From NCBI RefSeq assembly GCF_030384885.1, contig NZ_CP128613.1: DNA of 64,000 nucleotides; one strand, given 5' to 3'. Position 1 is the stretch's first letter; each line of letters starts with the position of its first letter. Of this stretch, positions 5,471-46,987 are shown piece by piece. This DNA is from Escherichia coli. Its GTDB lineage: Bacteria; Pseudomonadota; Gammaproteobacteria; Enterobacterales; Enterobacteriaceae. The position numbers and the translations under genes are program-made. The notes below the pieces were generated by a model. It saw nothing but the letters and a program-made list of their open reading frames with translations, had not been told where the DNA came from and made no database searches.

Positions 5471-5803
5471 ATGAACCCTTATATTTATCTTGGTGGCGCA
5501 ATACTTGCAGAGGTCATTGGTACAACCTTAATGAAGTTTTCAGAGGGGTTTACACGGTTATGGCCCTCTGTTGGCACAATTATTTGCTATTGTGCATCAT
5601 TCTGGTTATTAGCTCAGACGCTGGCTTATATACCTACAGGGATTGCTTATGCTATCTGGTCAGGAGTCGGTATCGTTCTGATTAGTTTGCTTTCCTGGGG
5701 ATTTTTTGGCCAACGACTGGACCTGCCAGCCATCATAGGCATGATGTTGATTTGTGCCGGTGTGTTAGTCATTAACTTGTTGTCACGAAGTGCACCGCAT
5801 TAA
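5471..5803 (+). CDS. emrE: Small multidrug resistance (SMR) efflux transporter EmrE
   Basis: 110-aa product MNPYIYLGGAILAEVIGTTLMKFSEGFTRLWPSVGTIICY... inside track ORF 5291..5803; four hydrophobic segments; RBS-like aggaaag upstream. Confidence 0.85.
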   Translation: MNPYIYLGGAILAEVIGTTLMKFSEGFTRLWPSVGTIICYCASFWLLAQTLAYIPTGIAYAIWSGVGIVLISLLSWGFFGQRLDLPAIIGMMLICAGVLVINLLSRSAPH

Positions 5804-5971
5804 AAAATAATTATCCTTGAGACAACAGGAATGTAATTTGTGCATATTATGGCTAATGTTGAGGGCAACTTTATAATTATGATTGCATTTGCACGATCAT
5901 TGCGCCTTTATGCATAATGAGAGCAAGGCACATCAAATAAAATAACGATAGGTCACAACAAAGAGGTTTTT

Positions 5972-6523
5972 ATGAAAAAGCTTATCGTTTCAAGTGTATT
6001 GGCATTCATAACATTTTCTGCGCAGGCCGCAGCATTTCAGGTCACTAGTAATGAAATAAAAACAGGAGAGCAACTTACAACGTCTCATGTATTTTCTGGA
6101 TTTGGGTGTGAGGGGGGTAATACATCGCCCTCATTAACCTGGTCTGGTGCTCCAGAAGGCACCAAAAGCTTTGCCGTAACTGTGTATGATCCAGATGCGC
6201 CTACAGGCAGTGGATGGTGGCACTGGACGGTTGCTAATATTCCAGCAACGGTAACATATTTGCCCGCTGATGCAGGAAGACGTGATGGTACAAAACTTCC
6301 GACTGGTGCTGTCCAAGGCCGAAATGATTTTGGCTATGCAGGATTTGGTGGAGCATGTCCTCCCAAAGGAGATAAACCCCATCATTACCAGTTTAAAGTA
6401 TGGGCTCTAAAAACTGATAAGATTCCTGTAGATTCTAATTCCAGCGGAGCGTTAGTTGGTTATATGCTTAATGCCAATAAAATTGCAACCGCTGAGATAA
6501 CACCCGTTTATGAGGTAAAGTAG
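5972..6523 (+). CDS. ybcL: Periplasmic PEBP/RKIP-family protein YbcL
   Basis: 183-aa ORF with N-terminal signal peptide MKKLIVSSVLAFITFSAQAAAF; matches YbcL as I recall it. Confidence 0.8.
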   Translation: MKKLIVSSVLAFITFSAQAAAFQVTSNEIKTGEQLTTSHVFSGFGCEGGNTSPSLTWSGAPEGTKSFAVTVYDPDAPTGSGWWHWTVANIPATVTYLPADAGRRDGTKLPTGAVQGRNDFGYAGFGGACPPKGDKPHHYQFKVWALKTDKIPVDSNSSGALVGYMLNANKIATAEITPVYEVK

Positions 6524-6532
6524 GATAAGAGT

Positions 6533-7330
6533 ATGCTGGCAAAAGATAGGACTAACCTAAAGATTGAAGAAATACGGATGCATAAACATCATGAGATTCA
6601 CAGGGTTAAGCCTCTTATGCCAGCTTTATGTCGTATCCGTCAGGGAAAAAAAGTTATCAATTGGGAGACGCATAGTCTAACTGTTGATAATAATCAGATA
6701 ATATTATTTCCCTGTGGATATGAATTTTATATTGCGAATTACCCAGAAGCAGGTCTTTATCTTGCAGAAATGCTTTATTATCCCATTGATCTAATTGAAA
6801 AGTTCCAAAATCTTTATGCGATAACCGATCAAATTCGTAACACGACAGGTTTCTGCTTACCTCAGAATCCTGAGTTAATATATTGTTGGGAGCAACTAAA
6901 AACATCTATTTCCCGAGACTTCTCAACGCAAATTCAGGAACACTTAGCAATGGGCGTTCTACTTTCATTAGGAGCACATCATGTTAATTGTTTACTTTTA
7001 TCAGATAGTAAACAATCATTAATAAGTCGTTGTTATAACCTAATGCTATCCGAACCTGGAACAAAATGGACAGCAAACAAGGTAGCGAGATATCTCTACA
7101 TTTCTGTTTCCACATTGCATCGCCGTCTGGCAAGCGAGGGAGTAAGTTTTCAAAGTATATTGGACGACGTGAGGTTAAATAATGCGTTGTCTGCTATACA
7201 AACGACAGTAAAACCCATCAGCGAGATTGCCAGGGAAAATGGTTACAAGTGTCCTTCTCGTTTTACTGAAAGGTTCCATAATCGTTTTAAGATAACACCA
7301 AGAGAGCTAAGAAAAGCGTCCAGAGAGTAA
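6533..7330 (+). CDS. ybcM: AraC-family transcriptional regulator YbcM
   Basis: 265-aa ORF; C-terminal AraC-type helix-turn-helix region (...[41 protein letters not shown]...). Confidence 0.8.
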
Positions 7331-7339
7331 AAGTATTTT

Positions 7340-7459
7340 ATGAAGGAGCAACAGCATCGATTTTTATTTTGGAAAATAAATACGGCATACTCAACCTATT
7401 GGAGCCTGAACAATCCGGTGACTTCTGCGCTAATCGGGGACGTTTATAAGCACATATAA
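7340..7459 (+). CDS. Hypothetical 39-aa small ORF immediately after ybcM (possibly a ylcH-like small protein)
   Basis: ATG 7340 to TAA 7457-7459, MKEQQHRFLFWKINTAYSTYWSLNNPVTSALIGDVYKHI; below the ORF-track size cut-off; no independent support. Confidence 0.2.
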   Translation: MKEQQHRFLFWKINTAYSTYWSLNNPVTSALIGDVYKHI

Positions 7460-8019
7460 TTGATACTATCTTCCTCCATCACAATTTCAGAAATGCACGT
7501 GTGATTTTTTTGCATCCGGCGTTTGGACTATGTGGAGTTCAAGAGTGGGAAAGTTACAAGAGGTTGAGGGGATAATTAAAGGGATGCTTATGACATTAGA
7601 TATCCGGATAGGTACGGATATCGTTGTTATTAAATCTAGTTTATACGTTAAGATGCAGCTACAGCAGAAATTACCACTGTTAATTTTTTCATCGTGAGCC
7701 CTTTTATTTGTACTATTATTTAAAAATGATGTCACTGCACTACAAATACTCATCTAATCAATGAGATTATTTCAAGATGTAAGTTTTAGTTTCTCATTTA
7801 AATTGTGAAGCAGATCCCTCCTTTTATCTGAACTGTTTCTATTGTACACAATGCATGACTATTTTGTGAACGAATATAAATTTGGTAGTCAAATTATATT
7901 AAAGGTTGTTATTTATGATTGACTCATAATTTATTTTTTTAATTTAAATAACCTAATAATAACCATGGAGATTATTTGCATGATATTTGTTTAGACTTGT
8001 TAATGTAATTGAGGTGATT

Positions 8020-8694
8020 TTATTTAATACGCAATATAGCGCCGCTTGATATTAGTTCTATTTTTTTTTGCGTAAGATAGATGAGACAAACTGAGACGCA
8101 TAATGGTTTGCAAGGCTCTAATACTTTGATGTTGAGGATGTGATGGGGCATGTACGTGCATAGTACAATGATGTCCATGCCGGTGTAGATAATCTCCAGG
8201 CTTATCCGGTGCGCCGTAAAACCCCGTCCTTCAGGGCGGGGATATAAGGCGCGGTTTTCCACCTGACCAGGTGTTTGCTGTTGTTCAATGTATTGGCGGA
8301 TGACGGACATTGGCGCACCTCCGCAGCTACTGGCAAAATTGCCAGGACTCCACAAAACGCCTTTGTAGTAATACCTGACTGTAATATCTGGTCGATCTCG
8401 TCGCAGTAACCTACCCGATACGCCTTTGAGGCTGTTTACCAGACTGGATATCGCCAGTTTGGGAGGATAGTTAATTAACAAATGGACGTGATCTGGTTCG
8501 CCATCCATTTCAACCAGTTCAGCTTCAAAATCAGCACATACATTTGAAAAGTAAGTGCGTAGTTTTTCTGTCGCGTCATGGTCAAAAATCTGGCGTCGGT
8601 ATTTGGTGACAAAGACCAGGTGAACATGCATCAGGAAAACACAATGCCTTCCACGCCGGATATCGGTTTCTTTTTTCACAGACCAAAGTATCAT
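8020..8694 (-). CDS. tnpA: IS200/IS605-family HUH (Y1) transposase TnpA; conserved core is about aa 1-145, and the ORF continues a further ~80 codons with no stop
   Basis: HUH motif (DHVHLLINYPP), ...HVHLVFVTKYRRQ... and catalytic-Tyr region ...GGAPMSVIRQYIEQQQ align with IS608/IS200 TnpA; similarity ends near nt 8275. Confidence 0.7.
   Translation of the reverse strand: MILWSVKKETDIRRGRHCVFLMHVHLVFVTKYRRQIFDHDATEKLRTYFSNVCADFEAELVEMDGEPDHVHLLINYPPKLAISSLVNSLKGVSGRLLRRDRPDITVRYYYKGVLWSPGNFASSCGGAPMSVIRQYIEQQQTPGQVENRALYPRPEGRGFTAHRISLEIIYTGMDIIVLCTYMPHHILNIKVLEPCKPLCVSVCLIYLTQKKIELISSGAILRIK
8222..8241 (+). repeat. Left-end subterminal imperfect palindrome (hairpin) of the IS200/IS605 element
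   Basis: ccccgtcc-ttca-gggcgggg: 8-bp stem with one G:T position and a TTCA loop. Confidence 0.6.
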
Positions 8695-8701
8695 TTGACC
8701 T

Positions 8702-9910
8702 GTGAAACGATTACAGGCATTTAAATTCCAGTTAAGACCCGGTGGTCAACAGGAGTGTGAAATGAGGCGCTTCGCAGGCGCATGTCGTTTCGTTTTCAAT
8801 CGTGCTCTGGCGCTTCAGAATGAGAATCATAAGGCCGGTAAGAAATACATCCCTTACGGGAAAATGGCTTCCTGGCTGGTTGAGTGGAAAAATGCCACTG
8901 AAACGCAATGGCTTAAAGATTCGCCCTCACAGCCATTGCAACAGTCACTGAAAGACCTTGAGCGGGCTTACAAAAACTTCTTCCAGAAGCGGGCTGCTTT
9001 TCCCCGATTCAAAAAGCGGGGACAGAATGATGCATTCCACTACCCGCAGGGCGTTAAGCTCGATCAGGAAAACAGCCGTATTTTTCTGCCGAAACTTGGC
9101 TGGATGCGCTACCGGAATAGCCGTCAGGTCACGGGTGTTGTGAAAAATGTCACTGTCAGCCAGTCCTGCGGTAAGTGGTACATCAGTATTCAGACAGAAA
9201 GTGAAGTATCAACTCCGGTTCATCCTTCAGCATCAATGGTCGGGCTGGATGCTGGCGTGGCTAAACTCGCCACGCTGTCAGATGGCACAGTCTTTAAGCC
9301 TGTAAACAGTTTTCAGAAAAACCAGAAGACGCTGGCGAGACTTCAGCGACAGTTAAGCCGCAAGGTCGAATTCAGCAATAACTGGCAGAAGCAGAAACGC
9401 AAAATACAGCGACTGCATTCCCGTATCGCAAATATCCACAGGGACTACCTTCACAAAGTCACAACGACCGTCAGCAAAAACCACGCAATGATAGTCATTG
9501 AGGATTTGAAGGTCAGCAACATGTCAAAGTCAGCAGCGGGTACGGTCAGCCAGCCGGGGCGCAATGTCCGGGCAAAATCAGGTTTAAACCGTTCGATACT
9601 GGATCAGGGCTGGTATGAAATGCGCCGCCAGCTTGAGTACAAGCAGCTCTGGCGTGGCGGTCAGGTGCTTGCTGTTCCGCCAGCGTACACAAGCCAGCGT
9701 TGCGCGTGCTGTGGTCATACAGCGAAAGAAAATCGCCTGTCACAAAGTAAATTCAGATGCCAGGTATGTGGATATACAGCGAACGCCGATGTAAACGGCG
9801 CTCGTAACATTTTAGCGGCGGGGCACGCCGTTCTTGCCTGTGGAGAGATGGTGCAGTCAGGCCGCCCGTTGAAGCAGGAACCCACCGAAATGATTCAGGC
9901 GACAGCCTGA
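8702..9910 (+). CDS. tnpB: IS200/IS605-family TnpB (OrfB; RuvC-like RNA-guided nuclease family), apparently intact
   Basis: 402-aa ORF, GTG start at 8702. N-terminus [13 protein letters not shown].. resembles ISDra2 TnpB; RuvC-I (MVGLDAG), RuvC-II (IVIEDLKV), Cys4 zinc finger (CACCGH...CQVCGY) and RuvC-III ([10 protein letters not shown]) all present. Confidence 0.85.
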
Positions 9911-9970: not shown

Positions 9971-10621
9971 CTCCGCGCCCTGGTTTTTGACATTACCCAC
10001 CGCGCGCGACACAGGGTGCCAGGTGAACTGGTTTGCTGGAACACAGCCACTGGCAGCAATTTCAGAGGCTTCTTTACCGCTAATCTCTTGCCGCATCCAT
10101 TCCCGCGCAGCTTCTGGCGACAGTACCAGCGGGCGGCGGTCATGAATATCTACCAGACCCTGGTCTGCTGCTGCAGTGACAATTAAAAATCCTTCGGCTT
10201 CGTCACCACGCTCAAACGGTGTGCTACCTATCGCGGCTATAAAAACAGGTTGTCCATCAGCGCGATAGATAAAATAAGGCTGTTTTTTGTCGCCTTCTTT
10301 TTTCCACTCAAACCAGCCATCGGCAAAACAGATTGCCCGACCATGTTGCCAGAGCGGTTTAAACATACGACTGGTTGCCGCAGTTTCTACGCGGGCGTTA
10401 ATCAGCGGCGGTTTATCCCACCATCCGGGAGCATATCCCCAGAAAACCGGATCCAGATGAAGGTGTTCATCACGTTCACTGAGCAGAAGAACTTTGGTTC
10501 CCGGCGCGACGTTGTATCTGCCAATAGGTTCGGGATCGTAGGGAATATCGCGTTCAATATCTTCCGCGAGAAGCGCAAGGTAATCTTCACGCGTTTGGGA
10601 TTGGGTAAAGCGTCCACACAT
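9950..10621 (-). CDS. yedK: SOS-response-associated peptidase (abasic-site processing protein) YedK
   Basis: 223-aa ORF starting MCGRFTQSQTREDYLALLAEDIERDIPYDPEP... (SRAP family, catalytic Cys2); C-terminus ...AELIQPVC sits at the IS right end. Confidence 0.88.
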   Translation of the reverse strand: MCGRFTQSQTREDYLALLAEDIERDIPYDPEPIGRYNVAPGTKVLLLSERDEHLHLDPVFWGYAPGWWDKPPLINARVETAATSRMFKPLWQHGRAICFADGWFEWKKEGDKKQPYFIYRADGQPVFIAAIGSTPFERGDEAEGFLIVTAAADQGLVDIHDRRPLVLSPEAAREWMRQEISGKEASEIAASGCVPANQFTWHPVSRAVGNVKNQGAELIQPVC

Positions 10622-10697
10622 AGCAACCTCCTGAGATCATACTGAAAAGAATAGGAGAGGGGGCGGGTAAAATCTATGTGATACAGAGGTAACGATG

Positions 10698-10722
10698 TTC
10701 CCGCTGTTGGCCACAGCGGGAA
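10698..10722. other. Perfect 9-bp inverted repeat (hairpin) between yedF and yedK
   Basis: ttcccgctg-ttggcca-cagcgggaa; no adjacent T-run, so not a canonical terminator. Confidence 0.3.
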
Positions 10723-10729
10723 TGAGGGA

Positions 10730-10963
10730 TTACTTCTGAATTAAATAACGAATGGTCGGCCCGTCTTGCTGAATATCCAGCACCGTATAGCCGTGATTAC
10801 GCGCATCCAGTGGAATATTATTGATCGACTGCGGACAGTCGCTCACCACTTCCAGGATCTCACCTTTTTTTAACTGCGGCATCGCCTCAAGGGTTGCAAC
10901 TGCCGGATAAGGGCAGGGTTCACCCACCATATCAAGGCGGTAATCAGGAACGATATTTTTCAT
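10730..10963 (-). CDS. yedF: TusA-like sulfurtransferase-family protein YedF
   Basis: 77-aa ORF MKNIVPDYRLDMVGEPCPYPAVATLEAM... with the CPxP motif. Confidence 0.88.
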   Translation of the reverse strand: MKNIVPDYRLDMVGEPCPYPAVATLEAMPQLKKGEILEVVSDCPQSINNIPLDARNHGYTVLDIQQDGPTIRYLIQK

Positions 10964-16613: not shown

Positions 16614-16640
16614 TTATCGGCCTGAATTGCGCAAAGTTTA
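16614..16640 (-). promoter_or_regulatory. sigma28 (FliA) promoter for fliDST
   Basis: Minus strand reads TAAACTTT-N11-GCCGATAA (consensus TAAAGTTT-N11-GCCGATAA), about 40 nt upstream of fliD. Confidence 0.65.
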
Positions 16641-16732: not shown

Positions 16733-16759
16733 TAAAGGTTGTTTTACGACAGACGATAA
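16733..16759 (+). promoter_or_regulatory. sigma28 (FliA) promoter for fliC
   Basis: TAAAGGTT-N11-GACGATAA, 77 nt upstream of the fliC ATG. Confidence 0.65.
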
Positions 16760-16835: not shown

Positions 16836-18542
16836 ATGGCACAAGTCATTAATACCAACAGCCTCTCGCTGATCACTCAAAATAATATCAACAAGAACCA
16901 GTCTGCGCTGTCGAGTTCTATCGAGCGTCTGTCTTCTGGCTTGCGTATTAACAGCGCGAAGGATGACGCAGCGGGTCAGGCGATTGCTAACCGTTTTACT
17001 TCTAATATTAAAGGCCTGACTCAGGCGGCCCGTAACGCCAACGACGGTATCTCCGTTGCGCAGACCACTGAAGGCGCGCTGTCCGAAATCAACAACAACT
17101 TACAGCGTATTCGTGAACTGACGGTTCAGGCCACTACAGGGACTAACTCCGATTCTGACCTGGACTCCATCCAGGACGAAATCAAATCCCGTCTCGACGA
17201 AATTGACCGCGTATCCGGCCAGACCCAGTTCAACGGCGTGAACGTACTGGCAAAAGACGGTTCGATGAAAATTCAGGTTGGTGCGAATGACGGCCAGACT
17301 ATCACTATTGATCTGAAGAAAATTGACTCTGATACGCTGGGGCTGAATGGGTTTAACGTTAACGGCAAAGGTACTATTGCGAACAAAGCTGCTACAGTCA
17401 GCGATCTGACCGCTGCTGGTGCAACGGGAACAGGTCCTTATGCTGTGACCACAAACAATACAGCTCTCAGCGCTAGCGATGCACTGTCTCGCCTGAAAAC
17501 CGGAGATACAGTTACTACTACTGGCTCGAGTGCTGCGACCTATACTTATGATGCGGCTAAAGGGAACTTCACCACTCAAGCAACAGTTGCAGATGGTGAT
17601 GTTGTTAACTTTGCAAATACTCTGAAACCAGCGGCTGGCACTACTGCATCAGGTGTTTATACTCGTAGTACTGGTGATGTGAAGTTTGATGTAGATGCTA
17701 ATGGCGATGTGACCATCGGTGGTAAAGCCGCGTACCTGGACGCCACTGGTAACCTATCTACAAACAACGCCGGCATTGCATCTTCAGCGAAATTGTCCGA
17801 TCTGTTTGCTAGCGGTAGTACTTTAGCGACAACTGGTTCTATCCAGCTGTCTGGCACAACTTATAACTTTGGTGCTGCGGCAACTTCTGGCGTAACCTAC
17901 ACCAAAACGGTAAGTGCTGATACTGTTCTGAGCACAGTACAGAGTGCTGCAACGGCTAACACAGCAGTTACTGGTGCGACAATTAAGTATAATACAGGTA
18001 TTCAGTCTGCAACTGCGTCTTTCGGTGGTGCGAATACTAATGGTGCTGGTAATTCGAATGACACCTATACTGATGCAGACAAAGAGCTCACCACAACCGC
18101 ATCTTACACTATCAACTACAACGTCGATAAGGATACCGGTACAGTAACTGTAGCTTCAAATGGCGCAGGTGCAACTGGTAAATTTGCAGCTACTGTTGGG
18201 GCACAGGCTTATGTTAACTCTACAGGTAAACTGACCACTGAAACCACCAGTGCAGGCACTGCAACCAAAGATCCTCTGGCTGCCCTGGACGACGCTATCA
18301 GCTCCATCGACAAATTCCGTTCATCCCTGGGTGCTATCCAGAACCGTCTGGATTCTGCGGTGACTAACCTGAACAACACCACTACCAACCTGTCTGAAGC
18401 GCAGTCCCGTATTCAGGACGCCGACTATGCGACCGAAGTGTCCAACATGTCGAAAGCGCAGATTATCCAGCAGGCCGGTAACTCCGTGCTGGCAAAAGCC
18501 AACCAGGTACCGCAGCAGGTTCTGTCTCTGCTGCAGGGTTAA
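16836..18542 (+). CDS. fliC: Flagellin FliC (568 aa; H type not assigned, not the K-12 allele)
   Basis: Conserved N-terminus MAQVINTNSLSLITQNNINKNQSALSSSIERLSSGLRINSAKDDAAGQAIANRF and C-terminus ...SKAQIIQQAGNSVLAKANQVPQQVLSLLQG; Thr/Ala/Gly/Ser-rich central region. Confidence 0.95.
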   Translation: MAQVINTNSLSLITQNNINKNQSALSSSIERLSSGLRINSAKDDAAGQAIANRFTSNIKGLTQAARNANDGISVAQTTEGALSEINNNLQRIRELTVQATTGTNSDSDLDSIQDEIKSRLDEIDRVSGQTQFNGVNVLAKDGSMKIQVGANDGQTITIDLKKIDSDTLGLNGFNVNGKGTIANKAATVSDLTAAGATGTGPYAVTTNNTALSASDALSRLKTGDTVTTTGSSAATYTYDAAKGNFTTQATVADGDVVNFANTLKPAAGTTASGVYTRSTGDVKFDVDANGDVTIGGKAAYLDATGNLSTNNAGIASSAKLSDLFASGSTLATTGSIQLSGTTYNFGAAATSGVTYTKTVSADTVLSTVQSAATANTAVTGATIKYNTGIQSATASFGGANTNGAGNSNDTYTDADKELTTTASYTINYNVDKDTGTVTVASNGAGATGKFAATVGAQAYVNSTGKLTTETTSAGTATKDPLAALDDAISSIDKFRSSLGAIQNRLDSAVTNLNNTTTNLSEAQSRIQDADYATEVSNMSKAQIIQQAGNSVLAKANQVPQQVLSLLQG

Positions 18543-18562
18543 TCGTCTGAATGCCTCTCAAA

Positions 18563-18585
18563 CCCCGCCACCGGCGGGGTTTTTT
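18563..18585 (+). terminator. Rho-independent terminator of fliC
   Basis: ccccgcc-acc-ggcgggg followed by tttttt. Confidence 0.8.
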
Positions 18586-18707
18586 CTGTCCGCAATTTAC
18601 CGGTAACCCCCAAATAACCCCTCATTTCACCCACTAATCGTCCGATTAAAAACCCTGCAGAAACGGATAATCATGCCGATAACTCATATAACGCAGGGCT
18701 GTTTATC
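18586..18707 (+). promoter_or_regulatory. fliA promoter region (class 2 FlhDC-dependent plus sigma28 autoregulated, by established knowledge)
   Basis: GCCGATAA sigma28 -10 element at 18675-18682; the -35 and FlhDC box were not confidently placed. Confidence 0.4.
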
Positions 18708-46960: not shown

Positions 46961-46987
46961 TAAAGTTTCCCTCCTTCTTGCCGATAA
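46961..46987 (+). promoter_or_regulatory. sigma28 (FliA) promoter of the tar-tap-cheRBYZ (meche) operon
   Basis: TAAAGTTT-N11-GCCGATAA, exact match to the sigma28 consensus, about 30 nt upstream of the tar ATG. Confidence 0.8.

Follow-up and report, generated by a model that had tools for sequence, protein, structure and literature searches.

Introduction

In flagellin, the H-antigen epitopes sit on outer domains, which are formed by the middle of the protein and exposed at the surface. Alleles of fliC are known to be exchanged horizontally, and some Escherichia coli H types are encoded outside fliC. Among the structurally characterised flagellins, those of H7, H6 and Achromobacter have three outer domains, D2–D4, whose dimers or tetramers were seen by cryo-EM to make up an outer-domain sheath (ODS) (Kreutzberger et al. 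2022, PMC8931119). The sheath gives stability to an intermediate waveform and makes tumbles longer, and its assembly involves a 180-degree rotation of half the subunits (PMC8931119).

The H45 type strain is 4106-54, with fliC accession AY250023.1 (PMC4753304). Three further strains are labelled H45 in the literature. TW11681, an enterotoxigenic E. coli (ETEC) strain used in human challenge, has serotype O19:H45 (PMC6630672), and IAI39 is listed as O7:H45:K1 (PMC8281228). Strain 2013C-4282 belongs to cryptic clade I, is stx1-positive (stx1a), and has the in-silico genotype OG9:H45 (Okuno et al. 2023, PMC10100065, Table S1). H45 is the commonest H genotype in cryptic clade I (PMC10100065). In a clustering of flagellins, H45 was placed in a Firmicutes-dominant cluster (C150), far from the other E. 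coli flagellins (Hu and Reeves 2020, PMC7018530).

Here we describe the flagellin gene in a window of 64,000 nucleotides from E. coli contig NZ_CP128613.1 (assembly GCF_030384885.1), and coordinates below refer to this window unless another sequence is named. The feature is almost certainly the central hypervariable region of chromosomal fliC in its H45 form, with core and surface domains, sheath, promoter and terminator as proposed below. The allele is already known: it is a catalogued H45 fliC and biologically ordinary.

Gene and locus

The fliC gene, encoding the flagellin subunit of the filament, is an intact open reading frame at 16836–18542 on the plus strand, with 568 codons and a stop. 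Its neighbours in the ORF map and the RefSeq annotation are fliD-fliS-fliT on the minus strand and fliA-fliZ on the plus strand, in the same order as in K-12. Pfam domains in the 568-aa product are Flagellin_N (PF00669) at residues 5–140, the enterobacterial FliC middle domain (PF12445) at 326–472, and Flagellin_C (PF00700) at 482–566. PF00669 scored 158 bits (cutoff 26.6) and PF00700 scored 108.6 bits (cutoff 23). The NCBIfam model NF005953, 'FliC/FljB family flagellin', matched end to end with 815 bits (cutoff 619). Helical flagellin domains above their gathering scores and a position upstream of fliAZ, with fliDST transcribed divergently, place the protein in the FliC/FljB family. Antisense ORFs within fliC and fliD (e.g., 17100–17579, minus strand) were rejected as mechanical calls with no supporting evidence.

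Three segments were distinguished by comparison with K-12. The conserved N-terminal D0/D1 core spans residues 1–175 (16836–17360, plus strand; 91.2% nucleotide identity), and the conserved C-terminal D1/D0 core spans residues 477–568 (18264–18539, plus strand; 90.3% nucleotide identity). Between them lies the hypervariable central region with the outer domains, residues 176–476 (17361–18263, plus strand), for which BLASTP gave no alignment to K-12 FliC. Threonine, alanine, glycine and serine together make up 55.9% of residues 165–432 and about 35% of each terminus. A preliminary description, made from the letters and their reading frames, had reported a 568-aa protein with conserved termini around a centre rich in these four amino acids; the ORF, the Pfam domains and the K-12 alignment agree with it. 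It had also given 498 aa as the length of K-12 flagellin, correctly: MG1655 fliC is 1497 nt long and encodes 498 aa.

In BLASTP against K-12 FliC, residues 1–212 align at 83% identity and are nearly identical up to about residue 175, and residues 464–568 align at 82%. A forced alignment of the central DNA gave 55%, a score that amounts to no real alignment; at the sequence level the two centres are unrelated. Against K-12, the divergent block covers approximately residues 176–476, or nucleotides 17361–18263. The interval first proposed for it, 17330–18130, falls mostly inside this block, but its right edge is about 130 nt short. K-12 FliC (H48, 498 aa; core structure PDB 8CXM) shares with the window protein its locus, its D0/D1 core (82–83% amino acid identity in the aligned termini) and its promoter region. 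It differs in being 70 aa shorter and in some 300 central residues unrelated in sequence. Genes flanking fliC have 97–99% nucleotide identity to K-12, and the gene content of the window differs from that of K-12.

In blastn, other E. coli alleles match the edges of the block only, on the left up to nucleotide 17408 and on the right from nucleotides 18174–18216. The core unique to this allele is therefore approximately 17409–18173. Blastn with 11-base words, aimed at diverged E. coli relatives, found edge matches only, and no neighbouring H type can be named at the DNA level.

A site resembling a sigma-28 (FliA) class-3 promoter, TAAAGGTT-N11-GACGATAA, was read from the sequence upstream of fliC (16733–16759, plus strand). 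The sigma-28 consensus is TAAAGTTT-N11-GCCGATAA, and each element of the fliC site has one mismatch to it. Between fliD and fliC, the intergenic sequence has 99.25% identity to that of K-12. A pattern match located a second promoter-like site, TAAACTTT-N11-GCCGATAA, for the divergent fliDST operon (16614–16640, minus strand). This is one of two exact sigma-28 pattern matches in the window, where 0.04 would be expected by chance; the other, a perfect consensus, lies at 46961–46987 just upstream of tar. A scan identified a putative intrinsic terminator of fliC at 18560–18585 (plus strand), in which a T run follows a 10-bp GC-rich stem; K-12 and strains E600003 and CE10 keep it too. From these sequences we infer promoter and terminator function: fliC would be expressed from the FliA class-3 promoter, and its transcript would end at the terminator 18 nt past the stop codon.

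The fliC-fliA intergenic region (18543–18707) measures 165 nt, compared with 320 nt for K-12. The window and CE10 both lack a block of some 153 nt immediately following the fliC stop, and the terminator is retained. In K-12 and E600003 this block includes two REP-like palindromes and most of FliX (b4827), the 3′ UTR sRNA annotated in K-12. Its presence is independent of H type, as E600003 keeps the block with an identical FliC protein.

Serotype assignment

The window was compared with strains labelled H45. It aligns to positions 535609–599608 of NZ_CP027579.1, from 2013C-4282 (human stool, USA), with 10 single-base differences in 64,000, and fliC has none of them (100% identity). The FliC protein is identical to RefSeq WP_000079725.1, the accession annotated in NZ_CP027579.1. 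The fliC gene of IAI39 is 98.7% identical over all 1707 nt, and the central region of TW11681 fliC is 98.3% identical to the window. All three carriers share with the window the locus and the 568-aa length, with central regions 98.3–100% identical; the few SNPs are synonymous or lie in the terminal regions. Strains assigned to H45 by serotype or genotype thus have a fliC that is almost the same as the window gene in the central region. The call rests on three strains labelled H45 in papers, rather than on the reference allele AY250023.1, and at least one of the three labels is not serological, since that of 2013C-4282 is an in-silico genotype.

The ten differences from NZ_CP027579.1 are at window positions 1108, 21841, 23240, 29054, 32372, 40991, 41982, 44051, 53024 and 61509. 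Six are transversions. Of the seven that lie in genes, six are synonymous and one, yecA A60G, is not. The window is therefore not the RefSeq record itself but derives from another assembly version or from an almost identical isolate; the strain is most likely 2013C-4282 or such a cryptic clade I, stx1a-positive STEC isolate.

Three other readings of the gene were weighed against H45. The preliminary description had named its own counter-case, that the gene is simply the K-12 (H48) allele with its length misstated. Termini 90–91% identical in DNA and a syntenic locus are what such an allele would have, but the K-12 gene is 1497 nt (498 aa, against 568 here), about 300 central residues give no BLASTP alignment to it, and K-12 derivatives of the DH5alpha type match only the first 79 nt of 17330–18130. 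This reading is excluded. The same comparisons, together with the divergence of the flanking genes and the different gene content, uphold the earlier view that the strain is not K-12. That the allele is new or untypeable and merely resembles H45 is very improbable. It draws what credit it has from a comparison made through labelled strains and not through type-strain allele AY250023.1. Against it, the centre is 98.3–100% identical to strains labelled H45 in three independent papers, the exact protein occurs on 905 contigs in public data, and no intermediate alleles were found in 5,426 genomes. The central domain does identify the H type, as the preliminary description had expected, and that type is H45.

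The gene could also be H45 by sequence in a strain whose expressed H antigen differs or is absent, through a silent fliC, loss of motility, or a second flagellin locus with a fliC repressor. The encoding of some E. coli H types outside fliC speaks for this reading, as does a window sequence silent on expression and motility; its probability is small, slightly above that of a new allele. It is countered by an intact fliC ORF with its sigma-28-like promoter and terminator, by intact fliA, fliZ, fliDST, flhDC, motAB and che genes in the 64-kb window, and by whole-genome in-silico typing of 2013C-4282, which gave H45 only. H45 as the type of the gene is the reading we adopt. Its practical value is in strain typing, as the allele marks an H45 strain and not a laboratory K-12. 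Current understanding of flagellin diversity is unchanged by finding the H45 allele here.

In TW11681, fliZ (10268–10819 of the compared locus) carries an internal stop and is annotated as a pseudogene; fliZ in the window is intact.

Filament architecture

The N- and C-terminal thirds of the protein are the conserved D0/D1 helices, from which the core of the filament is built. The H45 middle, of about 300 residues, would form outer domains that are exposed at the surface and give the filament its H45 antigen. A phmmer search of the central region against PDB sequences matched 7SQD (E 1.3e-41), 7SN4 (E 3e-35) and 9N59 (E 3e-30), each over at least 298 of 301 residues. These entries are flagellins of Achromobacter sp. 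MFA1 R4 (7SQD), EHEC O157:H7 (7SN4) and Azotobacter vinelandii (9N59); 7SN7, which appears below, is from EPEC O127:H6.

An AlphaFold2 (AF2) model of FliC was built on a 24-sequence alignment and has a mean pLDDT of 81.4; a single-sequence run gave an unusable pLDDT of 47.5. The modelled termini are long helices at residues 4–101, 106–129 and 480–567. The modelled centre is a beta-rich fold with pLDDT of at least 78 in most 10-residue blocks, and 66–75 at residues 371–400. Foldseek against PDB ranked 7sn4_A (E 3e-54), 9n59_A, 7sn7_A and 7sqd_A as the best matches of the model, with Salmonella FliC further down (E ~1e-25). Global TM-scores between the model and the solved chains are only about 0.5, which is attributed to domain orientation.

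The outer domains of the sheath flagellins (7SN4, 7SN7, 7SQD and 9N59) are homologous over nearly the whole H45 centre and are only about 40–45% identical to it, so the H45 serotype is distinct from theirs. In homology to D2–D4 of the H7, H6 and Achromobacter flagellins, the H45 protein falls in the ODS class of Kreutzberger et al. (2022). Because its outer domains are homologous to D2–D4 of the H7, H6, Achromobacter and Azotobacter flagellins, we infer, from homology only and with outer domains about 45% identical, that H45 filaments would carry an outer-domain sheath of dimers or tetramers, as do those of H7, H6 and Achromobacter. Joining H45 to this structurally characterised H7/H6/Achromobacter class gives a testable prediction on filament architecture.

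Outside Escherichia, the closest relative found by a word-indexed protein search (14 matches) is a flagellin of Atlantibacter hermannii, with 65% identity over the whole centre. When 1.84 billion cluster representatives were searched exhaustively, only 27 clusters, defined at 50% identity, matched the centre at E ≤0.001, the best of them 45% identical. With only these 14 and 27 matches, the outer-domain family is small and a deep alignment is out of reach. Homology to the flagellins of H7, Achromobacter, Azotobacter and Atlantibacter hermannii, all Proteobacteria, is hard to square with the Firmicutes-dominant placement of H45 (PMC7018530), which probably reflects coarse clustering.

The fliC gene of NZ_CP060946.1 ('E. 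coli O157:H7 str. EC10', urine, 4.79 Mb) was not used as a bona fide H7 reference and entered an alignment only as one more flagellin. It occupies 1061–2827 of the compared locus, 1767 nt encoding 588 aa versus 585 aa in 7SN4, and the record name may give a wrong serotype.

Distribution and probable horizontal spread

Of 5,426 complete E. coli genomes, 85 have the H45 central region, each at no less than 97.9% identity. No intermediate forms were detected by blastn among these genomes, with 11-base words included, and the remaining genomes match 10% of the region or less. The distribution is all-or-none. It follows the 'dual-level' pattern that Hu and Reeves described for hypervariable regions of flagellins (PMC7018530). 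The FliC protein belongs to a cluster at 90% identity with 297 members, from E. coli, Shigella boydii, S. dysenteriae and S. flexneri. Both ETEC lineages and cryptic clade I commonly have H45 flagella.

Two further carriers were compared across the locus. In ETEC strain E600003 (Bangladesh), the central region is 100% identical to the window, the FliC protein carries the same accession, and flanking genes are 97.2–100% identical. In CE10 (O7:K1, a meningitis strain), the central region is 99.56% identical and flanking genes are 95–99% identical. Between distant backgrounds, the H45 allele has changed less in nucleotide sequence than the housekeeping genes around it, which show 1–5% differences. 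A centre better conserved than its background fits the known horizontal exchange of fliC alleles, which here would have involved both cryptic clade I and E. coli sensu stricto. The pattern suggests recent horizontal movement across deep Escherichia lineages. The fuller proposal has two parts held jointly: that H45 filaments form a sheath of the H7/Achromobacter type that alters waveform and tumbling, and that the allele moved very recently from one to the other of two lineages, clade I and E. coli sensu stricto, given a centre 100% identical beside flanking genes at 97–99%. We favour it by a slight degree.

Other features of the window

The interval between fliE and yedK (5471–9910) encodes emrE-ybcL-ybcM, followed by a partial IS200/IS605 tnpA (8269–8694, minus strand) and then an intact insQ/TnpB RNA-guided endonuclease gene (8702–9910, plus strand). 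In K-12, emrE-ybcL-ybcM sit in the DLP12 prophage. In TW11681, fliE adjoins yedK directly, and E600003 and CE10 have yedL at that spot.
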